Sequence record: MT682710.1
Strand: one strand, 5' to 3'
Length of the DNA: 64,000 nucleotides
Origin: Escherichia phage vB_EcoM_FT
Made by a program: the position numbers and the translations under genes. Each line of letters opens with the position of its first letter. The stretch's first letter is position 1. Positions 25,807 to 49,012 of this stretch are shown here, in pieces. The notes under the pieces are model-generated. The model was not told where the DNA came from. It was given only the letters and a program-made list of their open reading frames with translations, and ran no database searches.

Positions 25807-28800
25807 ATGGCCGAGATTAAAAGAAAGTTCAGAGCAGAAGATGGTCTGGACGCAGGTGGCGATAAAATAATCAACGTAGCTTTAGCTGATCGTACCGTAG
25901 GAACTGACGGTGTTAACGTTGATTACTTAATTCAAGAAAACACAGTTCAGCAATATGATCCAACTCGTGGATATTTAAAAGATTTTGTAATCATTTATAA
26001 TAATCGTTTTTGGGCAGCAACGGATAATATTCCAAAACCTGCTGGAAATTTTAATAGAATTCGTTGGAAAGCATTACGTACTGATGCCGTATATACAACC
26101 GTATCATCTGGACCATATCAATTAAAATCCGGAGAAGCAATTTCAGTAGATACATCAGTTGGCAATGACATTGAGTTTACTTTACCACCTTCTCCGCTTG
26201 ATGGAGAAACCGTAATAATTCAAGATATCGGTGGAAAACCTGGCATAAATCAGGTTAAAATAAATTCTTCAAATCAGAGTATTGTTAATTTTAGAGGTGA
26301 ACAAGTACGTTCAGTTTTAATGACTCATCCAAAGTCACAGATGATATTCATTTTTAATAATCGTTTGTGGCAAATGTATGTTGCTGATTATAGCAGAGAA
26401 GCTGCGATTGTTACTCCATCGACTGCATATCAAGCACAATCTAATGATTTTATCGTGCGTAGATTTACTTCCGCTGCGCCGATTAATATTAAACTTCCAA
26501 GATTTGCCAATCATGGAGATATCATTAATTTCGTTGATTTAGATAAATTAAATCCACTTTATCATACAATTGTTACGACATATGATGAAACGACGTCAGT
26601 GCAAGAAGTTGGAACTCATTCCATTGAAGGCCGTACATCGATTGACGGTTTCTTGATGTTTGACGATAATGAGAAATTGTGGAGATTGTTTGACGGGGAT
26701 AGTAAAGCACGTTTACGCATTATAACAACTAATTCAAATATTCGTCCAAACGAAGAAGTTATGGTATTTGGTGCGAATAACGGAACAACTCAAACAATTG
26801 AGCTTCAGCTTCCTACTGATATCTCTGTTGGTGATACTGTTAAAATTTCCATGAATTACATGAGAAAAGGACAAACAGTTAAAATCAAAGCTGCCGGTGA
26901 AGATAAAATTGCTTCTTCAGTTCAATTGCTGCAATTTCCAAAACGTTCAGAATACCCACCTGAAACTAAATGGGTGACTGTTCAAGAATTAGTTTTTAAT
27001 GGCGAAACCAATTATGTTCCAGTTTTACAGCTTGCTTATATCGAAGATTCCGATGGAAAATATTGGGTTGTACAGCAAAACGTTCCAACTGTAGAAAGAG
27101 TAGACTCTTTAAATAATTCTACTAGAGCAAGATTAGGCGTAATTGCTTTAGCTACACAGGCTCAAGCTAATGCAGATTTAGAAAATTCTCCACAAAAAGA
27201 ATTGGCAATTACTCCAGAAACGTTAGCTAATCGTACTGCTACAGAAACTCGTAGAGGTATTGCAAGAATAGCAACAACTGCGCAAGTAAACCAGGATACC
27301 GCATTCTCTTTTGCAGATGACCTTATCATCACTCCTAAAAAGTTGAATGAAAGAACTGCTACAGAAACTCGTAGAGGTGTCGCAGAAATTGCTACGCAAC
27401 AGGAAACTAATACAGGTACTGATGATACTACAATCATTACTCCTAAAAAGCTTCAAGCTCGTCAAGGTTCTGAATCATTATCTGGTATTGTAACTTTTGT
27501 ATCTACTGCAGGTGCTACTCCGGCTTCTAGCCGTGAATTAAATGGTACGAATGTTTATAATAAAAACACTAATAATTTAGTTGTTTCACCCAAAGCTTTG
27601 GATCAGTATAAAGCTACTCCAACACAGCAAGGTGCAGTAATTTTAGCAGTTGAAAGTGAAGTAATTGCTGGACAAAGCCAAGAAGGATGGGCAAATGCGG
27701 TTGTAACGCCAGAAACGTTACATAAAAAGACATCAACTGATGGAAGAATTGGTTTAATTGAAATTGCTACGCAAAGTGAAGTTAATACAGGAACTGATTA
27801 TACTCGTGCAGTCACTCCTAAAACTTTAAATGACCGTAAAGCAACTGAAGGTTTAAGTGGTATAGCTGAAATTGCTACGCAAGTTGAATTCGACGCGGGC
27901 GTCGACGATACTCGTATCTCTACACCATTAAAAATTAAAACCAGATTTAATAGTACTGATCGTACTTCTGTTGTTGCTCTATCTGGATTAGTTGAATCAG
28001 GAACTCTCTGGGACCATTATACCCTTAATATTCTTGAAGCAAATGAGACACAGCGTGGCACACTTCGTGTGGCTACACAGGTTGAAGCTGCTGCAGGAAC
28101 ATTGGATAATGTTCTAATAACTCCTAAAAAGCTTTTAGGTACTAAATCTACTGAAGCGCAGGAAGGCGTTATTAAAGTTGCAACTCGGTCTGAAACTGTA
28201 GCTGGAACGTCAGCAAATACTGCTGTATCTCCAAAAAATTTAAAATGGATTGTGCAGAGTGAACCTACTTGGGCAGCTACTACTGCGATAAGGGGCTTTG
28301 TTAAAACTTCTTCTGGTTCATTAACGTTTGTTGGTAATGATACGGTAGGTTCAACACAGCCATTAGAATCATATGAGAAAAATGATTATGCAGTATCACC
28401 ATATGAATTAAATCGCGTATTAGCAAATTATTTGCCATTAAAAGCAAAAGCTGTAGATAGTAATTTATTAGATGGTCTAGATTCGCTCCAGTTCATTCGT
28501 AGGGACATTGCACAAACAGTTAATGGTTCACTAACCTTAACCCAACAAACGAATCTGAGTGCCCCTCTTGTATCATCTAGTACTGCTACATTCGGTGGAT
28601 CAGTTTCAGCAAATAGTACATTAACTATTTCTAATACTGGAACGGCAACTCGTCTGATTTTTGAGAAAGGATCTCAAACTGGAACAAACCCGGCTCAAAC
28701 GATGACAGTCAGAGTGTGGGGAAATCAATTTAGCGGGGAATCAGATACAACACGTTCTACCGTATTTGAAGTTAGTGATGAAACGTCTAGTCATTTTTAT

Positions 28801-29676
28801 TCTCAGCGTAATAAAGCTGGAAATATAACATTTAATATCAACGGTACAGTAACACCGATAAATGTTAATGCTTCAGGAACATTGAATGCAAATGGTGTAG
28901 CAACATTTGGTAATTCAGTCACTGCAACTGGTGAAATTATTTCTCGAAGCGCAAATGCTTTCCGTGCTATTAACGGAAATTATGGTTTCATTGTTCGCAA
29001 TGATGGATCAGTAACGAATTTTATGCTTACTGCATCGGGTGATCAGACTGGTGGATTTAATGGATTACGTCCAGTATCAATTAATAATCAATCTGGTCAG
29101 GTTACAATTGGTGAAAGCTTAATCATTGCAAAAGGTGCTACTATAAGTTCAGGCGGTTTAACTGTTAACTCGAGAATTCGTTCTCAAGGTACTAAAACTT
29201 CTGATTTATACACTCGCGCACCAACATCTGATACAGTAGGATTCTGGTCAATTGATATTAATGATTCAGCCACTTATAATCAATTCCCTGGTTATTTTAA
29301 AATGGTTGAAAAAACTAATGAAGTGACTGGTCTTCCATATTTAGAACGTGGCGAAGAAGTTAAATCTCCTGGTACATTGACTCAGTTTGGTAACACGCTT
29401 GATTCTCTTTACCAAGATTGGATTACTTATCCAACAACTCCAGAAGCGCGTACCACTCGTTGGACGCGTACATGGCAGAAAACCAAAAACTCTTGGTCAA
29501 GTTTTGTTCAGGTATTTGACGGAGGTAACCCTCCTCAACCTTCAGATATAGGAGCAATCCCATCTGATAATGGAATAATAGGTAATCTTACTATTCGCGA
29601 TTTCTTGCGAATTGGTAATGTTCGCATTATTCCTGACCCAGTGAATAAAACTGTTAAATTTGAATGGATTGAATAA
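25807..29676 (+). CDS. 34: long tail fibre proximal subunit gp34
   Basis: 1289 aa, same length as T4 gp34, internal TATETRRG repeats. Confidence 0.97.
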   Translation: MAEIKRKFRAEDGLDAGGDKIINVALADRTVGTDGVNVDYLIQENTVQQYDPTRGYLKDFVIIYNNRFWAATDNIPKPAGNFNRIRWKALRTDAVYTTVSSGPYQLKSGEAISVDTSVGNDIEFTLPPSPLDGETVIIQDIGGKPGINQVKINSSNQSIVNFRGEQVRSVLMTHPKSQMIFIFNNRLWQMYVADYSREAAIVTPSTAYQAQSNDFIVRRFTSAAPINIKLPRFANHGDIINFVDLDKLNPLYHTIVTTYDETTSVQEVGTHSIEGRTSIDGFLMFDDNEKLWRLFDGDSKARLRIITTNSNIRPNEEVMVFGANNGTTQTIELQLPTDISVGDTVKISMNYMRKGQTVKIKAAGEDKIASSVQLLQFPKRSEYPPETKWVTVQELVFNGETNYVPVLQLAYIEDSDGKYWVVQQNVPTVERVDSLNNSTRARLGVIALATQAQANADLENSPQKELAITPETLANRTATETRRGIARIATTAQVNQDTAFSFADDLIITPKKLNERTATETRRGVAEIATQQETNTGTDDTTIITPKKLQARQGSESLSGIVTFVSTAGATPASSRELNGTNVYNKNTNNLVVSPKALDQYKATPTQQGAVILAVESEVIAGQSQEGWANAVVTPETLHKKTSTDGRIGLIEIATQSEVNTGTDYTRAVTPKTLNDRKATEGLSGIAEIATQVEFDAGVDDTRISTPLKIKTRFNSTDRTSVVALSGLVESGTLWDHYTLNILEANETQRGTLRVATQVEAAAGTLDNVLITPKKLLGTKSTEAQEGVIKVATRSETVAGTSANTAVSPKNLKWIVQSEPTWAATTAIRGFVKTSSGSLTFVGNDTVGSTQPLESYEKNDYAVSPYELNRVLANYLPLKAKAVDSNLLDGLDSLQFIRRDIAQTVNGSLTLTQQTNLSAPLVSSSTATFGGSVSANSTLTISNTGTATRLIFEKGSQTGTNPAQTMTVRVWGNQFSGESDTTRSTVFEVSDETSSHFYSQRNKAGNITFNINGTVTPINVNASGTLNANGVATFGNSVTATGEIISRSANAFRAINGNYGFIVRNDGSVTNFMLTASGDQTGGFNGLRPVSINNQSGQVTIGESLIIAKGATISSGGLTVNSRIRSQGTKTSDLYTRAPTSDTVGFWSIDINDSATYNQFPGYFKMVEKTNEVTGLPYLERGEEVKSPGTLTQFGNTLDSLYQDWITYPTTPEARTTRWTRTWQKTKNSWSSFVQVFDGGNPPQPSDIGAIPSDNGIIGNLTIRDFLRIGNVRIIPDPVNKTVKFEWIE
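27220..27390 (+). repeat. intragenic tandem-like repeats in gp34
   Basis: actgctacagaaactcgtagaggt recurs at about 27236 and 27356. Confidence 0.6.
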
Positions 29677-29684
29677 GAGGTATT

Positions 29685-30800
29685 ATGGAAAAATTTATGG
29701 CAGAGTTTGGACAAGGATATGTTCAAACGCCATTTTTATCGGAAAGCAATTCAGTAAGATATAAAATAAGTATAGCGGGTTCTTGCCCGCTTTCTACAGC
29801 AGGACCATATGTTAAATTTCAAGATAATCCTGTAGGAAGTCAAACATTTAGCGCAGGTCTTCATTTAAAAGTTTTTGACCCTTCTACAGGAGCATTAGTT
29901 GACAGTAAATCATATGCTTTTTCTACTTCAAATAATACTACATCAGCTGCTTTTGTTAGTTTCATGAATTCTTTGTCAAACAATAGACTTGTTGCTATAT
30001 TAACTAGCGGAAAGGTTAATTTTCCTCCTGAAGTGGTATCTTGGTTAAGGGGAGCAGGAACTTCAGTTTTTCCATCAGATTCAGTATTGTCAAGATTTGA
30101 CGTATCATATGCTGCTTTTTATACTTCTTCTAAAAGAGCTATTGCATTAGAGCATGTTAAACTAAGTAATAGAAAAAGCACAGATGATTATCAAACTATT
30201 TTAGATGTTGTATTTGATAGTTTAGAAGACGTCGGAGCGACAGGATTTCCAAAAAGAACTTATGAAAGTGTAGAGCAATTCATGTCAGCAGTTGGTGGAA
30301 CTAATAACGAAATTGCGCGATTGCCAACTTCAGCTGCTATAAGTAAACTTTCTGACTATAATTTAATTCCTGGTGATGTTCTTTATCTTAAAGCACAGTT
30401 ATATGCTGATGCTGATTTACTTGATCTTGGAACTACAAACATATCCATTCGTTTTTATGATGCATCAAATGGATATATTTCCTCTACCCAAGCTGAGTTT
30501 ACTGGGCAAGCTGGGTCTTGGGAATTAAAGGAAGATTATGTAGTTGTTCCTGAAAATGCAATCGGATTTACTATATATGCACAGAGAACTGCTCAAGCTG
30601 GTCAAGGCGGAATGAGGAATTTAAGCTTTTCTGAAGTATCAAGAAATGGCGGCATTTCAAAACCTGCCGAATTTGGCGTCAACGGTATTCGCGTTAATTA
30701 TGTCTGTGAATCGGCTTCACCTCCAGATATAATGGTACTTCCTACACAAGCCTCTTCTAAAACTGGCAAAGTGTTTGGGCAAGAATTTAGAGAAGTTTAA
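29685..30800 (+). CDS. 35: long tail fibre hinge connector gp35
   Basis: 371 aa at T4 gene 35 position. Confidence 0.92.
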   Translation: MEKFMAEFGQGYVQTPFLSESNSVRYKISIAGSCPLSTAGPYVKFQDNPVGSQTFSAGLHLKVFDPSTGALVDSKSYAFSTSNNTTSAAFVSFMNSLSNNRLVAILTSGKVNFPPEVVSWLRGAGTSVFPSDSVLSRFDVSYAAFYTSSKRAIALEHVKLSNRKSTDDYQTILDVVFDSLEDVGATGFPKRTYESVEQFMSAVGGTNNEIARLPTSAAISKLSDYNLIPGDVLYLKAQLYADADLLDLGTTNISIRFYDASNGYISSTQAEFTGQAGSWELKEDYVVVPENAIGFTIYAQRTAQAGQGGMRNLSFSEVSRNGGISKPAEFGVNGIRVNYVCESASPPDIMVLPTQASSKTGKVFGQEFREV

Positions 30801-30862: not shown

Positions 30863-31513
30863 ATGGCTGATTTAAAAGTAGGTTCAACTGTTGGTGGATC
30901 TGTCATTTGGCATCAAGGAAATTTTCCATTGAATTCAGCCGGTGACGATGTACTCTACAAATCATTTAAAATATATTCAGAATATAATAAACCGCAGGCA
31001 GCTGATAACGATTTCGTTTCTAAAGCTAATGGTGGTACTTACACCGGTCCAATTACTATTAATTATGGGGTAAATAGTTATCTTCAATTAAGTAATAATG
31101 AAACCCCTATCCGAATTCGTTCTGGTGGCGGCACCGGTAATACTCTTATAGTTGGTGGCTCTTCTGGCGGTATTAGTTTTAGACCAGCAGGTAGTGAAAT
31201 CACTACTGGACAAATTACTATTACGCCAGAAGGTTTGACAACATTTACCAAAGCTGTAACGGCTCCATCTGTAACTGTCACATCTACTCCTTCCGCAGCA
31301 TCTGATGCTACTCGTAAAGATTATGTTGATGGAGCAATAAATACTGTTACAGCAAATGCAAACTCTAGGGTATTACGCTCTGGAGACACTATGACAGGAA
31401 ATTTAACTGCGCCAAACCTTTTTTCACAGAATCCTGCATCTCAACCTTCACACGTTCCACGATTTGACCAAATCGTGATTAAGGATTCTGTTCAAGATTT
31501 CGGCTATTATTAA
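30863..31513 (+). CDS. 36: long tail fibre distal connector gp36
   Basis: 216 aa at T4 gene 36 position. Confidence 0.92.
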
Positions 31514-31521
31514 GAGGACTT

Positions 31522-34467
31522 ATGGCTACTTTAAAACAAATACAATTTAAAAGAAGTAAAACTGCAGGTCAACGTCCTGCCGCTTCAGTATTAGCCGAAG
31601 GTGAATTGGCTATTAATTTAAAAGATAAAACAATTTTCACAAAAGATGACTCGGGCAGTGTTATAGAATTAGGTTTAAAATATGGAGGAACAATTGATGG
31701 TTCTTTAACTGTTAATGGAAATATAACTGGAACTTTAATTGGAAATTCTAGCACAGCTACTAAATTGCAAACACCTAGGAAAATTAATGGTATATCCTTT
31801 GACGGGTCAAAGGATATCACGCTAACTCCATCTGACATAAATGTCAATAGCACAACGTTTATAAAAAATAACGGCGAATTACCTGTTGATGCTAATTTAG
31901 ATGAATACGGGCCCGTTGAAGAATATCTTGGCGTTTGGTCGAAATCTACTTCAACAAATGCGCAACCGGCAAATAAATTCCCAGAAGAAAATGCCGTAGG
32001 TGTACTAGAAGTATTTGTGGCCGGTCAATTTGCTGGTACTCAGAGATATACTGTAAGATCTGGTAACGTATATGTTCGATCTTTGTCTGCTAAATGGAAC
32101 GGTGTTAACGGTCCGTGGGGAGTTTGGCGTAATGTTCAAGCGTCAACTCGTCCACTTTCACAAACGATTGACCTTGATAGCTTGGGAGAATTAGAACATT
32201 GCGGCTTATGGCGAAATAGTTCAAGTTCTATCGCATCGTTTGACCGTCATTATCCAGAAGAAGGATCAGCCGCACAAGGATTTTTGGAAATTTTTGAGGG
32301 TGGTTTATACGCAAGAACTCAACGTTATACAACTAGATTTGGTGTTGTTTATACTCGCTGTCTTGCTGCTGCATGGGATGCATCTGCGCCTAAATGGGGA
32401 CCGTGGCAACAAGTCGGTAATGTCACACCGGCGACTTTCTATGACGGAGACTTGAATGATTTTAAAGCTCCTGGGTTATATAACATTTTAGGCACTGATG
32501 CCGTTATTAACTGTCCTACTGGTGAAGGTTTACCAGCCGTTATTGTTGGTTTGCTGGAAGTTAAACAGCGTGCTTCTGGTGGTGCTATTTTCCAAAAATT
32601 TACTACTGCCGGAACGGGTGAAACTACTCGCGATCGTATTTTTGAGCGTGCATATACTGGTGGTGCGTGGGGTGCATGGAACGAAGTATATACATCTTAT
32701 TCTCTTCCAATTACTTTGGGTATGGGTGGTATTAAAGCTCAATTAGCGGAGTTAGATTGGCAAACCTTTGATTTTGTTCCTGGTAGTATGTTTAGCGTTC
32801 CTTTGAACAAAATAAAGAACATGCCAGCAAATATGGATTGGGGGACGATTGACGGAAACTTGGTTATGTTTTCCGTTGGTCCTAGCGAACACACTGGCAC
32901 AGGGCGTACTGTTCAGGTTTGGCGCGGTACTGTATCCCAGACAAACTACCGTTATTTCGTTGTTCGTATCGCTGGTAATCCAGGAAGTAGGACTAATACT
33001 TGTCGCCGTGTTGTTCTTGAAGACGGATCACATACTTGGACTGCTCAACAAAACTTTAGGGGATTGCTGAATATCACTGCTGCTGTTAATCTTGGTGCTA
33101 ATCAGAAAATTTCACTTGCTCCAGGAGCATATATTCAAGCCCCTGCTAGCGGTTCTGGTTCTAATACTTACGCAAATCAGAATACTACCATTGCGCCATT
33201 ATATCAGGCTATTGACGATTCAAATAAAAACCAGTTTGCGCCAATTGTTAAACAGAAAAATACTGTAAGTAATATCACCTTTGCCACTGGTATGGCTATA
33301 GGTACATCCGAATATAAGATCATTGCTCAGGGTGATTTATCCGCTGATGGAACAGCAGATGGGTTAAAACAGTGGACTTTCATGCCGTCAGGTTATTTTA
33401 AATCTCCAGGGCGTGTATATGTCGGTGATGCGTTCCTTAATACAGATGGTAACATTGCTGGTTCAATCTGGAAGAAATACAACGATGCAACCAATTTAGA
33501 TGCTGCCTTGAATACTCGCCTAGGTAAAGGCGGTGATACGATGACAGGTCGGTTAACAATCAATGCACCTAATGATTCTATTGTATTATCAACGACTGCT
33601 AGTAATTCTTTGCATATTCGTGGTGACATAGACGGGACTGGTAACTGGTATATTGGTAAGGGTGGTGCTGATAATTCGCTAGCATTTTATAGCTATGCTT
33701 CTCAGGCGGCAGTACATATCACAAACAATGGTGAGATTGCGTTAACCCCGCAAAATACCGCAATGGTTAACGTTAACCGTGACCGTGTACACATTAACGG
33801 TTCTGGATGGATTGCTAGACAACCGGGTGATTGGGGCAACCAATGGCGAGTAGAAGCTCCATTATTCGTTGATCATGGTTATGTTTCACAGGATTGTTAT
33901 TATCCTATTCTTAAAGCAAGAAGCGTTATAACCAATCAAGGATATAGCACCGCTGTTGACTTTGGTATGCGTCGTATTCCATCACAGTGGGGGCAAGCAA
34001 TCATTCGTGTCGGATCCACGGAGGCTTCTCCTGATGCTGGACACCCACAAGCTGTGTTTGAATTCCATCATGATGGATTCTTTTATACACCAGGAAATGG
34101 TAGCTTTAGCGATGTGTATATTCGTTCTGACTCCCGTCTCAAGATTAATAAAGAAGAATTAGAATATGGAGCGGTCGAAAAAGTTTGCCGACTGAAAGTT
34201 TATATTTACGATAAAGTTAAGTCTATTAAAGACCGTAGTGTTATTAAACGTGAAGTTGGTATTATTGCTCAGGACCTTGAAAAGGAATTACCGGAAGCTG
34301 TATCTAAAGTTGAAGTTGATGGATCTGATGTTCTGACAATTTCTAACTCTGCTGTGAATGCTCTTTTAATTAAGGCTATTCAGGAAATGAGTGAAGAAAT
34401 TAAAGAATTGAAAACGCCTCTCTTTACTAAAATTGCTCGCAAAATTAGTAAATATTTTAAATTCTAA
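31522..34467 (+). CDS. 37: long tail fibre distal subunit gp37 with C-terminal intramolecular chaperone domain
   Basis: 981 aa; N-terminus [13 protein letters not shown] as T4 gp37; C-terminus carries S-DSRLK motif. Confidence 0.95.
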
Positions 34468-34470
34468 CAA

Positions 34471-34490
34471 CAAGGGGGAAATGCCCCCTT
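34471..34490 (+). terminator. hairpin after gene 37
   Basis: ggggg-aaatg-ccccc followed by ttt. Confidence 0.45.
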
Positions 34491-34503
34491 TGGAGTATAA
34501 ATT

Positions 34504-35304
34504 ATGGCAGTAGTTGGTGTTCCTGGTTGGATTGGAAGTTCAGCCGCAAATGAAACAGGACAGCGCTGGATGAGTCAAGCGGCTGGTCAATTAAGATTGG
34601 GTGTTCCTTGCTGGATGAGTCAATTTGCAGGTCGCTCACGAGAAATTATTCACACGCTTGGAGCAGACCATAACTTCAATGGTCAATGGTTCCGAGATAG
34701 ATGTTTTGAGGCAGGTAGTGCACCTATAGTGTTTAATATTACCGGAAATTTGGTATCATATTCTAGAGATGTTCCTTTATTCTTCATGTACGGAGATACA
34801 CCGAATGAATATGTTCAATTAAATATTATTGGGGGCGCTCATATGTGGGGTAGAGGTGGACAAGGTGGATGGACTCATTCCGGTGGAGATGGTAATGGAC
34901 AACAAGGCGGGCATTGTATTCAAAATGACATTGGCGGACGATTAAGAATTAACAACGGTGGAGTAATTTGCGGTGGAGGTGGAGGTGGAGGTGGTATCGC
35001 TTATCGTCCTCACTCTGGCGCAAACTGGCAAGATATTGGTGGTGGCGGTGGAAGACCATTTGGCCCAGGAGGTGGCGGCGGTTACTCGGGTGGCGCAGCT
35101 TCATACGACGGTCCAGGAGGTGGTTATCAATACGGAAATGCTCATTCTGGCCAGGGTGGCGATGCCGGAGGAAATGGACAAAATGCCTGGTCGGATGGCG
35201 GTAAAGTTCTAAAGGTTGGTGCAGGAGGAGCAGCAGGTTATGCTGTCATAGGGTCTGCTCCAACGTGGCAAAATGTTGGAGCAATATATGGTCCAAGAGT
35301 ATAA
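34504..35304 (+). CDS. 38: tail fibre adhesin gp38 (T2-type, glycine-rich motifs)
   Basis: 266 aa; conserved N-terminal domain then poly-Gly segments (GGGGGGGG, GGGGG). Confidence 0.88.
34972..34995 (+). repeat. (GGTGGA)n codon repeat encoding poly-glycine in gp38
   Basis: ggtggaggtggaggtggaggtggt. Confidence 0.8.
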
Positions 35305-35334
35305 TGTGAATAAATACCCTTAAAAGGAGGGTCT

Positions 35335-35991
35335 ATGGCAGCACCTAGAATATCATTTTCGCCCTCTGATATTCTGTTTGGTGTTCTAGATCGCTTGTTC
35401 AAAGATAACGCTACCGGGAAAGTTCTTGCTTCCCGGGTAGCTGTCGTAATTCTTTTATTTATGATGGCGATTGTTTGGTATAGGGGAGATAGTTTCTTTG
35501 AGTACTATAAGCAATCAAAGTATGAAACATACAGTGAAATTATTGAAAAGGAAAGAAATGCACGCTTTGAATCTGTCGCCCTGGAACAACTCCAGATAGT
35601 TCATATATCATCTGAGGCAGACTTTAGTGCGGTGTATTCTTTCCGCCCTAAAAACTTAAACTATTTTGTTGATATTATAGCATATGAAGGAAAATTACCT
35701 TCAACAATAAGTGAAAAATCACTTGGAGGATATCCTGTTGATAAAACTATGGATGAATATACAGTTCATTTAAATGGACGTCATTATTATTCCGACTCAA
35801 AATTTGCTTTTTTACCAACTAAAAAGCCTACTCCCGAAATAAACTACATGTACAGTTGTCCATATTTTAATTTGGATAATATCTATGCTGGAACAATAAC
35901 CATGTACTGGTATAGAAATGATCATATAAGTAATGACCGCCTTGAATCAATATGTGCTCAGGCGGCCAGAATATTAGGAAGGGCTAAATAA
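35335..35991 (+). CDS. t: holin t
   Basis: 218 aa, matches recalled T4 holin sequence and length. Confidence 0.95.
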   Translation: MAAPRISFSPSDILFGVLDRLFKDNATGKVLASRVAVVILLFMMAIVWYRGDSFFEYYKQSKYETYSEIIEKERNARFESVALEQLQIVHISSEADFSAVYSFRPKNLNYFVDIIAYEGKLPSTISEKSLGGYPVDKTMDEYTVHLNGRHYYSDSKFAFLPTKKPTPEINYMYSCPYFNLDNIYAGTITMYWYRNDHISNDRLESICAQAARILGRAK

Positions 35992-36264
35992 TTATTTGTT
36001 CGTATACATCTCTAGATATCGATATACACCCTCAAAACCCTCGTTGAATTCGTCGATGAGGGTTTTCTTATCTTCTTGAGTTAATTCAGAAACAATTTTA
36101 CGAAATGAATTCTGATTTAACTTTCTATCTTCATGCGTTACTCCAATCTCATTCAGAAATGCAATAAAATTAGCACGATTCTCAACAATATCTTCTCTGG
36201 AAAATTTAATCAAAATAGACGCAACAGTAATAATTTCACGAACTGTATCAATGTTTTTATTCAT
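35992..36264 (-). CDS. asiA: anti-sigma70 factor AsiA
   Basis: 90 aa, matches recalled T4 AsiA. Confidence 0.95.
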   Translation of the reverse strand: MNKNIDTVREIITVASILIKFSREDIVENRANFIAFLNEIGVTHEDRKLNQNSFRKIVSELTQEDKKTLIDEFNEGFEGVYRYLEMYTNK

Positions 36265-47162: not shown

Positions 47163-47192
47163 ATTATACCACATCCTTGTGGTAAAGTAAAC
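47163..47192 (-). promoter_or_regulatory. T4-type early promoter
   Basis: GTTTAC, 18 bp, TATAAT on minus strand. Confidence 0.5.
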
Positions 47193-49012
47193 TACTGGCT
47201 CATCCATTCTTTACGAAGGTCAGCATTATCTCCCATGAGCATTTCAAAAAGCTCTTTCCAGTTCTCAGGAAGTTTAACAACATCATATACTGGGTTTTGA
47301 ATCATCTCACGATATTCAGATTTTTCCAAAGAGCCAAGTCCCTTAATATAACGGATGCTATGTTTAGGTAGAGCATCTTTAGCACTCTCATATTCAGCGA
47401 CTGTATAAAACCATTCTTGTTTTTTACCGACCTGAGCGATGATTACAGGAGTTTTGACAAAACGAATTCGTCCTTGCTCAAACAATTCTGGCCAATTACT
47501 AAAAAATCCGAGCAGAGAAGGATAAATGCTTCCTAGACCATCATGGTCAGCATCAGTCATAATAGCAATATTATGATAATTCAAGTTTTCAGCTTTTTCA
47601 CCAAGAACTAATCCAGTGATTGCGCAAATATCAAATAGTTCTTTGTTTTTAAGCATATCAGCATATGACATACCCCAACTGTTGAGAACTTTACCACGTA
47701 ATGGATAACCACCATGAAGTTCTTTATCACGAACATCAATAAGATATCCGATAGCCGAATCACCCTCAGTCAAGAAAAGAGTAGTGTCAGCATCTTTACC
47801 ACAAAGATTCGCTTTGATATGTTTATGAACCTTAGCTTTAGAAGCCTTTTTAGCTGCTTTAGTTTCTGCTGCTTTTTCTGCCGCCAATTTACGAGCTAAT
47901 GCTGCTTCAATAATCGGCATTAAAATTGCTTCATTATTCAAAATAGCACGTGAAATCTTTTTAGCATCAAGTTGAATATGACTACGGATTTCACCAAATG
48001 GAGAAGTCAAACGCTCTTTAGTTTGAGAATCAAATCGCATGTTTTTCATATCACGAACAAACATAACGATAGTCAAACATTCTTTAACGCGTGCTTTAGT
48101 TACATCAATTTTGAACTTGCGTTTGATTTGTGGAATAAGGTCTTCACAAATATCATCCATAACACAGTCAATGTGATGGCCACCATTCTTAGTGTGAATG
48201 TTATTCACATAAGTTAATTGACGAAAACCGTCGGGTGAACGACCAACCGCAATAGAACAATTTTCTTGTTCTTGAACGATAGCATGTTCATCATACTGTC
48301 GTGCATATTTCTTAAAATTGCCCTGAACCTTTTTACCATTAAAGGTAAATTGAATATCAGGATAAACTACTGCAAGTGTCTGGAGACGATCTAGTGTAAT
48401 GTCAAGATAAACTTGGGACAGTTCATTAGTTTCAAATGACATAAAATCAGGAATGAAAGTAACACGTGTTCCTTTCCATTTTCCAGGAATAGTTTCCCAT
48501 GATTTATTTTCCATGCCATTTGAACAACGAACTACAATATTATTTTGACCGTCGCCAGTTTCACCGACAAACATCACAGAAAAAATGTTTGTCAAACTAG
48601 AACCAACACCGTTCATACCGCCAGTGACGCGTTCTTTATCATCACCGAAGTTACCACCTGCTTTTGGAATAGTCCATGCAGCAACAGGACCAGGAATTTC
48701 TTCACCTGTAGGTGTTTTAACCATCGCCTGTGGAATACCACGACCGTTATCTTCAACTGTTACTTGATTGTTTTTAATAGTAACATTAATTTTATTTGCG
48801 AATTTAAACTTAGTACGAATACCTTCATCTACTGAGTTATCGATAATTTCATCAATAAGCTTAACAAGACCAGGTACATACTGAACACTTTCCCATTTAC
48901 CAAACAGAAAGCGCTCATGCATTTCATTAGCAGAAGAGCCAATATACATGCCGCTACGCTTTTTGATATGTTCAATATCGCTCAGAATTTTAATTTCATT
49001 CTTAATCATCAC
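47192..49012 (-). CDS. 39: DNA topoisomerase II large (ATPase) subunit gp39, unsplit
   Basis: 606 aa single ORF with GyrB-like character; no gene 60 split. Confidence 0.95.
   Translation of the reverse strand: MMIKNEIKILSDIEHIKKRSGMYIGSSANEMHERFLFGKWESVQYVPGLVKLIDEIIDNSVDEGIRTKFKFANKINVTIKNNQVTVEDNGRGIPQAMVKTPTGEEIPGPVAAWTIPKAGGNFGDDKERVTGGMNGVGSSLTNIFSVMFVGETGDGQNNIVVRCSNGMENKSWETIPGKWKGTRVTFIPDFMSFETNELSQVYLDITLDRLQTLAVVYPDIQFTFNGKKVQGNFKKYARQYDEHAIVQEQENCSIAVGRSPDGFRQLTYVNNIHTKNGGHHIDCVMDDICEDLIPQIKRKFKIDVTKARVKECLTIVMFVRDMKNMRFDSQTKERLTSPFGEIRSHIQLDAKKISRAILNNEAILMPIIEAALARKLAAEKAAETKAAKKASKAKVHKHIKANLCGKDADTTLFLTEGDSAIGYLIDVRDKELHGGYPLRGKVLNSWGMSYADMLKNKELFDICAITGLVLGEKAENLNYHNIAIMTDADHDGLGSIYPSLLGFFSNWPELFEQGRIRFVKTPVIIAQVGKKQEWFYTVAEYESAKDALPKHSIRYIKGLGSLEKSEYREMIQNPVYDVVKLPENWKELFEMLMGDNADLRKEWMSQ

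Follow-up and report, generated by a model that had tools for sequence, protein, structure and literature searches.

The only structurally characterised gp37 is that of S16, a Salmonella phage of the genus Gelderlandvirus which is said, from work by Marti et al. in 2013, to use OmpC as its receptor. In S16, genes 37, 38 and t follow one another, gp37 ends in a 113-residue S74 chaperone that is cut off before a conserved serine, and gp38 combines N-terminal tryptophan prongs with a glycine-rich sandwich (6F45); in a later account of this complex (PMC7917993, citing Dunne 2018), the tip left by gp37 cleavage has pockets that receive the gp38 tryptophans. The gp37 proteins of T2 and T6 are likewise reported to be cut proteolytically and then capped by gp38 (PMC3157838). 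Whereas the receptor of T2 is FadL (PMC3157838), that of RB32 gp38 was identified from deletion strains and chimeras as OmpA plus LPS, its specificity mapping to a 400-bp segment with four variable segments (Trojet 2011; PMC3157838). The chaperone of endoNF (3GW6) and the ICA domain of MyRF (7DC3) share the fold and the S-x4-K dyad spacing, and cleavage needs this Ser/Lys dyad in both (S911/K916 in endoNF, S587/K592 in MyRF; PMC8326128); their passengers differ, being a sialidase beta-propeller plus triple beta-helix or a transcription factor, and identity to the domain examined here is ~20% or less. By contrast, T4 gp37 lacks the S74 domain that T2 and T6 gp37 possess, carrying its own receptor-binding tip with Collar and Phage_fiber Pfam domains, and its gp38, a protein of 183 aa, is an unrelated chaperone of assembly that is absent from the virion.

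We analysed a 64,000-nucleotide stretch of the genome of Escherichia phage vB_EcoM_FT (MT682710.1; hereafter the window), a Tequatrovirus (T-even) segment with ~97% identity to deposited coliphages. Its genes 37 and 38 very probably encode the receptor-binding distal end of a long tail fibre of T2/T6 rather than T4 type, in which gp37 would shed a chaperone domain and be capped by gp38. This architecture is already textbook knowledge—known from the genetics of T2 and T6 and from structural work on S16—and involves no new biology; the sole local particulars are a mosaic gp37 and the combination of its T6-like tip with an RB32-like gp38.

Gene order and make-up of the locus

The window contains the long-tail-fibre operon in the order gp34, gp35, gp36, gp37 and gp38, followed by holin t (Table 1). 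Gene 38 is flanked downstream by t and, immediately upstream, by a gene 37 whose product terminates in an S74 domain, a layout identical to that of RB32, T2, T6 and S16; the bare order 37-38-t is common to these four phages and T4. Apart from operon position, the module shares with T4 no more than gp37 residues 1-66 (the gp36 junction, 79% identical) and a weak mid-region match, and BLASTP of window gp38 against T4 gp38 found no relationship (E 0.79). Given this unrelated gp38, and a gp37 with S74 where T4 has Collar, a T4-type tip is ruled out for the module, which a preliminary description of this DNA had already called T2-like rather than T4-like. Its term 'T2-type' holds at the level of the family and gives way at that of the allele, gp38 being of RB32 type (97% identity) and the gp37 tip of T6 type (98%).

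Table 1. Features of the distal tail-fibre locus, in window coordinates
Feature	Coordinates	Strand	Basis
Gene 37, long tail fibre distal subunit, 981-aa precursor	31522..34467	+	ORF; PHROG 1699, Pfam
Predicted mature gp37 (residues 1-868)	31522..34125	+	S16 cleavage-site alignment, DVYIR^SD motif
Intramolecular chaperone / Peptidase_S74 auto-processing domain, Ser869-Phe981, 113 aa	34126..34464	+	Pfam PF13884, conservation, fold
Stem-loop, 37-38 intergenic gap	34471..34492	+	MFE; covariation among relatives
Gene 38, T2-type tail fibre adhesin, 266 aa	34504..35304 (stop included)	+	Pfam, PHROG 2056, PDB
gp38 N-terminal attachment domain, residues 1-42, with Trp9, Trp22 and Trp37	34504..34629	+	Pfam Gp38_N
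gp38 glycine-rich motifs and hypervariable segments, residues ~116-245	34849..35238	+	Gly counts, T6 differences
Holin t	35335..35991	+	Pfam Phage_holin_T, 391 bits

The gp37 precursor matches PHROG 1699 (E 1.5e-203), annotated as 'long tail fiber protein distal subunit', and Pfam gp37_trimer over residues 692-737. It is a mosaic: the first 524 residues have 90-91% identity to T6 (AP018814; 91%) and RB32, residues 525-675 found no match in either T6 or RB32 on comparison, and the stretch 676-981 has 88% identity to T6. The last 182 residues, comprising the tip and chaperone domain, account for the 98% identity to T6, whose gp37 has an equal Pfam S74 score. The tip is 61% identical to RB32's own gp37 tip and 35% identical to that of T2 (AP018813); T2 gp37 is longer, at 1341 aa, and shares with the window a C-terminal S74 domain (56.5 bits), an NVYIR^SD motif and a partner adhesin of the GP38 family. 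Although S16 provides the one solved gp37 structure, identity to it over the last 182 residues is low, at 23%.

Genes 37 and 38 are 36 nt apart, and the gap holds a stem-loop (MFE -14.7 kcal/mol, z -2.6) followed by the gene 38 Shine-Dalgarno sequence GGAG (34492-34495). A hairpin stands at the same position in RB32, T6, T2 and S16 with differing stem sequences; five of its eight pairs are changed on both sides with pairing kept. The window hairpin is trailed by only three T, and a consensus scan of 34000-36100 detected, by its own criteria, no terminator on the + strand within this gap. Over the same interval, a sigma-70 consensus scan returned four candidates against a shuffled mean of 5.6, not above expectation. 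We weighed, and rejected, a reading of the heptamer TATAAAT (34496-34502) as a late promoter of T4 type serving gene 38: it ends 1 nt before the ATG, so transcripts would start inside gene 38, and it is absent at the same place in RB32 and T6. Searches of the whole window with Rfam at gathering thresholds and for tRNAs gave no matches.

The gp37 chaperone domain and its predicted cleavage site

The C-terminus of gp37 had been described beforehand as an intramolecular chaperone, and Pfam, the conserved dyad and the predicted fold all bear this out. Peptidase_S74 (PF13884) matches residues 869-927 with an E value of 6.3e-10 and 39.6 bits (gathering score 22) and spans profile positions 1-57 of 58, a similarity far above chance level. 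The domain makes up the last 113 of 981 residues, and among 165 homologues a median of 4 residues remains to the protein C-terminus.

Conservation was read from an exhaustive representative search, since a word-indexed protein search gave 17 close, mostly partial relatives, too shallow a set; the chaperone-domain search returned 2,090 representatives of 50%-identity clusters at E≤1e-3. Counting, within the 165 homologues, those that cover each column, Ser869 is kept in 157 of 158, Asp870 in 158 of 158 and Lys874 in 159 of 159. Ser869 (nt 34126-34128) and Lys874 (nt 34141-34143), which have the S-x4-K spacing of the catalytic dyad, are also invariant in a 30-sequence alignment. The residues immediately upstream—D864, V865, Y866, I867 and R868—are each the majority residue, in 92-117 of 166 aligned sequences.

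When single sequences were searched against the PDB, full gp37 and its last 120 residues each found a marginal match to S16 gp37 alone (E 0.004 and 0.001, respectively), and a 30-sequence profile was required to reach MyRF and GA-1. The gp37 C-terminal profile matched S16 gp37 (6F45_A, 2.9e-19), tail fibre 8JOV (4.5e-13), the MyRF ICA domain (7DC3, 7.5e-10) and the GA-1 neck-appendage chaperone (CIMCD; 3GUD, 1.4e-5). The S74 and chaperone similarity on which the preliminary description had made its reading depend is thus present, both in PF13884 and in solved domains.

An AF2 monomer model of the domain (pLDDT 93.2) comprises two beta-hairpins (model strands 33-39, 47-54, 67-72 and 75-80) and then a terminal helix of 38 residues (82-119). 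The modelled monomer shows the hairpins and the long C-terminal helix by which this fold is recognised, a helix that in the family builds a trimeric coiled coil. Foldseek returned three PDB matches at E≤0.001, all of them chains of MyRF ICA 7DC3 (best TM 0.72); GA-1 3GUD, endoNF 3GW6 and T5 pb1 4UW8 followed at E 0.05-0.4.

The domain boundary falls within the motif YIRSDSRLK, in which the codon of Asp870 starts at nt 34129. The S74 profile opens at conserved Ser869, and the GA-1 chaperone chain 3GUD begins at the homologous Ser of SDERHK. According to PMC7917993, the S16 gp37 cut lies before the conserved Ser (DLNVS^SDRRIKK), and the DVYIR^SD context, identical to that of the window, is discussed and predicted as the cut for the fPS phages. 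Although the residues preceding the cut differ (DLNVS in S16, DVYIR here), homology with S16 leads us to predict Arg868^Ser869 (DVYIR^SDSRLK) as the scissile bond. With the cut before Ser869, the released fragment would therefore have 113 residues; mature gp37 would end ...SFSDVYIR, with the DVYIR strand as the predicted docking tip for gp38. To judge from S16, T2 and T6, the domain would be released autocatalytically after the trimer has folded.

The preliminary description had drawn the cut in this same boundary motif, where it belongs, and yet at the bond after Ser869, one residue downstream of the position indicated by S16; its figure of 112 remaining residues is right when counted from Asp870, the coordinate at which its interval started. 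We regard an otherwise identical architecture that releases a 112-residue fragment from Asp870 as very improbable. Its sole support is that earlier placement of the bar, and conservation cannot by itself locate the bond, since next to no homologue departs from either Ser869 or Asp870; the S16 cut, the prediction made for the identical motif in PMC7917993, and the opening of both the Pfam profile and the 3GUD chain at the serine argue against it. Harder still to credit is a degenerate, non-cleaving domain kept on the fibre as a relic, with gp38 serving only as a T4-like assembly factor. Such a reading would have to accommodate catalytic Ser and Lys residues that are intact and near-universal among homologues, a gp38 that is unlike the T4 chaperone and matches over its full length a virion-adhesin family with solved structures, and the cleavage reported for T2 and T6 gp37 (PMC3157838). 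A chaperone shed by cleavage before Ser869 is the reading that we carry forward.

The gp38 adhesin and its predicted receptor

Two Pfam families account for nearly all of gp38: Gp38_N (PF21721) covers residues 1-42 (70.1 bits, profile 1-40 of 40) and GP38 (PF05268) residues 47-266 (229.7 bits, profile 1-218 of 218). The protein further matches PHROG 2056 at 8.4e-113 and, in the PDB, 9V85 at 8.2e-72 and S16 gp38 (6F45_D) at 2.2e-50 across residues 5-263. The GP38, 6F45_D and 9V85 matches support the earlier reading of this 266-residue product of 34504-35304 as a glycine-rich adhesin of the T2 type. Beside the close match to RB32, identity is 75% to T6, 51% to S16 and 49% to T2; gp38 of RB32/RB33 (DQ904452) and the fFiEco06-type adhesins align gap-free at 97-98% over all 266 residues. 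Of the deposited phages, 47 have a gp38 with 95-99% identity to that of the window, and none has one at 99% or above, an identical gp38 being absent among deposited phages.

The window, RB32, T6, T2 and S16 all keep W9, W22 and W37, and we predict that the N-terminal domain docks on the cleaved gp37 tip. Judged from the conserved DVYIR tip and the likewise conserved gp38 N-terminus, a gp37 tip of T6 type would be compatible with an RB32-like gp38.

Glycine contributes 71 of the 266 residues (27%), 54 of them within the 130 residues from 116 to 245, with runs of G8 (157-164), G5 (179-183), G5 (189-193) and G3 (205-207), plus many GG pairs; the glycine-rich stretches lie at 116-122, 157-164, 179-193, 205-207 and 218-223. 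Across a five-phage alignment the invariant columns are mostly Gly, and the intervening segments differ. Leaving out a 4-residue N-terminal annotation extension, 82 residues differ between window and T6 gp38, 72 of them in residues 105-240 and none beyond 240. RB32 gp38 differs by eight substitutions, about five of which fall in or beside the variable segments (I109G, A112V, N174K, Q209N, G223A, S230H). Residues ~116-245 are predicted to form the receptor-contacting polyglycine sandwich, and the examples of T2, T6, RB32 and S16 suggest that gp38 sits at the fibre tip in the virion and determines the receptor. That its variable segments set host range, as had been proposed, agrees with the mapping in RB32 (PMC3157838) and with a survey of 223 adhesins in which closely related gp38 proteins share receptors (Lutz 2025; PMC12032242).

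High identity across the hypervariable segments places gp38 in the RB32-type (OmpA/LPS) allele group, and from its overall identity to RB32 gp38 the receptor is most probably OmpA, with LPS-core dependence. This assignment is weaker than the architectural one because of the eight differences from RB32 and because single-residue receptor switches have been reported, T2-type adhesins one residue apart being able to have different receptors (Trojet 2011; PMC3157838). The same two considerations, several of the substitutions lying in the variable region, would favour a module built as described that binds something other than OmpA—Tsx, as in T6, or another porin—as would the T6-like gp37 tip and chaperone domain and the phylogenetic closeness of type 1 OmpA adhesins to Tsx binders (Lutz 2025; PMC12032242). 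We consider such a receptor unlikely: gp38 is far closer to RB32 than to T6, the differences from T6 cluster in the variable segments, in chimeras the variable segment of RB32 is enough by itself to give OmpA/LPS specificity (PMC3157838), and receptor sharing holds among close gp38 relatives in the 223-adhesin survey.

The T6-type tip, the substituted RB32-type gp38 and the extra shaft at residues 525-675 could together shift receptor or host range away from that of RB32, a suggestion that we hold to be unlikely. If it were true, the phage might, for instance, engage the OmpA loops differently or have moved to another receptor, and the locus would offer a case of natural host-range change by exchange of gp37/gp38 modules.

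A model of tip assembly and its uses

We propose that gp37 is synthesised as a 981-residue precursor whose S74-family intramolecular chaperone, Ser869-Phe981 (113 residues), would trimerise via its long C-terminal helix and nucleate folding of the upstream trimeric fibre. The Ser869/Lys874 dyad would then cut the Arg868-Ser869 bond and the chaperone depart, exposing a DVYIR tip that may be capped by one gp38, docked through Trp9, Trp22 and Trp37 of its N-terminal domain, for a presumed 3:1 stoichiometry of gp37 to gp38. From there, the polyglycine sandwich would display its hypervariable loops for binding to a host outer-membrane receptor, probably OmpA with LPS-core dependence on the strength of the RB32 identity. 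Nothing in the sequence contradicts this explanation. The gene layout, the family assignments from sequence, the conserved catalytic residues and the predicted fold are shown directly, whereas cleavage and its exact bond, the stoichiometry, gp38 attachment and virion location, and the receptor are carried over from homologues.

For annotation, the value of the analysis lies in dividing the gene 37 product into a predicted mature gp37 (residues 1-868) and a chaperone (869-981) that would be shed. The predicted use of OmpA, together with the LPS core, through an RB32-type gp38 may in turn help in choosing phages for therapy cocktails and in tail-fibre engineering.

Chaperone domain of gp37 and the position of the cut

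The preliminary description had read the end of gp37, the distal subunit of the long tail fibre, as a self-cleaving intramolecular chaperone domain followed by a glycine-rich gp38 adhesin, and the gp37 motif and gp38 features that it cited are all found in the sequence, at the positions it gave. In YIRSDSRLK of gp37, Ser869 is encoded by nucleotides 34126-34128 and Asp870 begins at 34129, where the preliminary description set its start, leaving 112 residues from Asp870 to the stop. Pfam places Peptidase_S74 ('chaperone of endosialidase') on residues 869-927 at 39.6 bits (curated cut-off 22 bits), spanning profile positions 1-57 of 58, and searching 1.84 billion cluster representatives exhaustively with HMMER gave 2,090 proteins matching the domain at E<=1e-3. 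When 165 retrieved homologues were aligned and counted over the sequences covering each column, Ser869 proved to be kept in 157 of 158, Asp870 in 158 of 158 and Lys874 in 159 of 159; Gly913 is kept in all 166 aligned sequences, the window's own counted, and a median of 4 residues separates the S74 domain end from the protein C terminus. The Ser869/Lys874 pair has the same S-x4-K spacing as the dyads of endoNF (S911/K916) and MyRF (S587/K592), which are needed for cleavage (PMC8326128).

Searched against the PDB, a profile built from a 30-sequence alignment of the domain matches S16 gp37 (6F45_A, 2.9e-19), the tail fibre 8JOV (4.5e-13), the MyRF ICA domain (7DC3, 7.5e-10) and the GA-1 neck-appendage chaperone (3GUD, 1.4e-5). 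The AlphaFold2 model from the same alignment is confident (pLDDT 93.2), with two beta-hairpins and a 38-residue terminal helix; at E<=0.001, Foldseek against the PDB returns only the three chains of MyRF ICA 7DC3 (best TM 0.72), with GA-1 3GUD, endoNF 3GW6 and T5 pb1 with its chaperone (4UW8) ranking next, within the top eight, at E 0.05-0.4. Pfam, the homologues with their conserved residues, the PDB-profile matches, the predicted fold and the dyad agree, and similarity to chaperone/S74 domains, the lack of which was to have told against the earlier reading, is therefore clear: on every feature that sequence can test, the domain is a true member of the S74 family.

S16 supplies the only solved tip complex for a gp37 of this type, and there auto-cleavage removes the last 113 residues by a cut between two serines, DLNVS^SDRRIKK (^ marks the scissile bond). 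In PMC7917993 that site is aligned with DVYIR^SDGRLKI of the authors' own Tequatroviruses, for which a cut between Arg and Ser is predicted. The window's gp37 reads DVYIR^SDSRLKI at the aligned site. Because this alignment, the first residue of the S74 profile match (Ser869) and the start of the deposited GA-1 chaperone chain (3GUD) at the homologous Ser point to the same bond, we predict cleavage at Arg868-Ser869, which would give a mature gp37 of residues 1-868 and release a 113-residue fragment, as long as that of S16. The motif in the preliminary description stands, but its cut, set after Ser869, moves to before that residue, where the homologues place it; the correction is of one residue and leaves the interpretation of the domain unaffected.

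The gp38 adhesin and its predicted receptor

The portrayal of gp38 as a glycine-rich protein of 266 residues is confirmed by its length, its glycine runs and Pfam. Glycine contributes 71 residues (27%), 54 of them within residues 116-245, as runs of G8, G5, G5 and G3 and many GG pairs; Gp38_N covers residues 1-42 (70 bits) and GP38 residues 47-266 (229.7 bits, the entire profile). Matches among solved structures include a GFP-gp38 fusion (9V85, 8.2e-72) and S16 gp38 (6F45_D, 2.2e-50, residues 5-263). Alignment with RB32, T6, T2 and S16 reveals invariant Trp9, Trp22 and Trp37, whose counterparts in S16 gp38 act as prongs, fitting into the tip of cleaved gp37 (PMC7917993). Most glycines are likewise invariant among the five phages, whereas the intervening stretches vary; identity to the window's gp38 is 97% in RB32 (8 substitutions, no gaps), 75% in T6, 51% in S16 and 49% in T2, and T6 gp38 differs from it at 82 residues, 72 of them in residues 105-240 and none after 240.

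We propose that the gp37 precursor trimerises with the aid of its own C-terminal chaperone domain and that, after fibre folding, the Ser869/Lys874 dyad would cut Arg868-Ser869, allowing the domain to dissociate. The gp38 N-terminal domain would then cap the exposed DVYIR tip, placing gp38 at the end of the fibre in the virion, and its variable loops on the polyglycine scaffold would bind an outer-membrane receptor. In T2 and T6, gp37 undergoes proteolytic cleavage and is capped by gp38 (Trojet et al. 2011, PMC3157838). For the window, what this analysis shows directly is the gene anatomy, the membership of families, how well the catalytic residues are conserved and the predicted fold, whereas the cleavage, the stoichiometry of the two proteins, the place of gp38 in the virion and the receptor are carried over from homologues.

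RB32 requires OmpA and is affected by LPS composition, and a 400-bp variable segment of its gene 38, moved into RB5, carries the specificity with it (Trojet et al. 2011, PMC3157838); receptors are common to closely related gp38 proteins (Lutz et al. 2025, PMC12032242). A gp38 95-99% identical to the window's occurs in 47 deposited phages, including fFiEco06, whose adhesin served as reference in Lutz et al. 2025 (PMC12032242). Given the RB32 results and this sharing of receptors, we predict with moderate confidence that the receptor is OmpA (plus LPS core), with caution because several of the 8 substitutions fall in or near variable segments and single-residue differences can reportedly alter the receptor (PMC3157838).

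The fibre operon and the 37-38 intergenic hairpin

The window is a segment of a T-even phage genome of the genus Tequatrovirus; several deposited coliphages, UTI-E4, D5505 and ES19/ES21 among them, match 96-98% of a 24-kb query around gp37-gp38 at ~97% identity, and no deposited record at least 99% identical to this query was found. The gene anatomy established here is canonical, with the fibre genes in the same order as in RB32, T2, T6, S16 and T4, and past holin t lie AsiA, MotA and topoisomerase gp52, all on the opposite strand.

Genes of the long-tail-fibre operon in the window
Gene	Position	Strand	Remarks
gp34	25807-29676	+	Pfam Gp34 domains
gp35	29685-30800	+	long-tail-fibre operon
gp36	30863-31513	+	long-tail-fibre operon
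gp37	31522-34467	+	981 aa; long-tail-fibre operon
gp38	34504-35304	+	266 aa; stop codon ending at 35304; long-tail-fibre operon
t (holin)	35335-35991	+	after gp38 in long-tail-fibre operon

A stable hairpin (34471-34492; -14.7 kcal/mol, z -2.6) lies within the 36 nt that separate genes 37 and 38, immediately past the gp37 stop and adjoining the gene 38 Shine-Dalgarno. RB32, T6, T2 and S16 carry a hairpin at the equivalent place with different stem sequences (loops UUCG in T2, UACG in S16), and 5 of the 8 pairs show pair-preserving changes on both sides. Since only three T residues follow it, the hairpin may terminate or attenuate transcription weakly, or protect the RNA 3' end, and may thereby set the gp37:gp38 ratio. 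Directly before the gene 38 ATG stands TATAAATT (34496-34503), similar to the T4 late-promoter core TATAAATA; as a late promoter for gene 38 it lies too near the start codon, RB32 and T6 lack it there (GGAG--AAAATTATG), and the likeness is probably fortuitous.

Base composition at 32001-36000 stands apart, with GC of 0.41-0.43 against 0.31-0.38 across most of the window, in keeping with the many Gly (GGN) codons of gp38 and distal gp37, and GC skew of +0.12 to +0.20 against negative values in most of the window, a sign that accords with the fibre operon lying on the + strand. Residues 58-112 of the hinge protein gp35 match Pfam ILEI (interleukin-like EMT inducer / FAM3 domain, PF15711; 31.6 bits, cut-off 27), a family not expected in the hinge of a phage fibre. 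Farther on, HATPase_c, DNA_gyraseB and TOPRIM_C domains occur together in a single 606-aa ORF (47192-49012, - strand), which looks like a topoisomerase II large subunit (gp39) left unsplit; in T4 that subunit is divided between gene 39 and gene 60.

Composition of the tip module

The earlier view of the module as T2-like rather than T4-like holds at the family level: T4 gp38 (183 aa) and the gp38 of the window are not similar (best E 0.79), and T4 gp37, which resembles the window's over no more than its first 66 residues (79%) and, weakly, a stretch in the middle, carries Collar and Phage_fiber domains without the S74 that ends both T2 and T6 gp37. More precisely, sequence comparison shows that the tip module is a mosaic. 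Residues 1-524 of gp37 are about 90% identical to T6 and to RB32, residues 525-675 find a match in neither, and residues 676-981 are T6-like (88%); over the last 182 residues, identity is 98% to T6, 61% to RB32 and 35% to T2. This T6-like tip is nonetheless partnered by an RB32-like gp38 (97%, against only 75% for T6), and in DNA comparison with T6 similarity is gone at about 34995-35223, spanning the gp38 variable segments. Six deposited phages align in one piece, at 87-93%, over the entire 3.8-kb gp37-gp38 stretch, and similar allele combinations therefore exist already.

Taken as a whole, the preliminary description reads a well-known system correctly, its architecture already familiar from genetics in T2 and T6 and from structure in S16, and the alleles in the window are 97-98% identical to deposited ones. 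That their gp37/gp38 pairing changes the receptor used or the host range is plausible though rather unlikely, and such a shift would be unremarkable in the T-even phage group.
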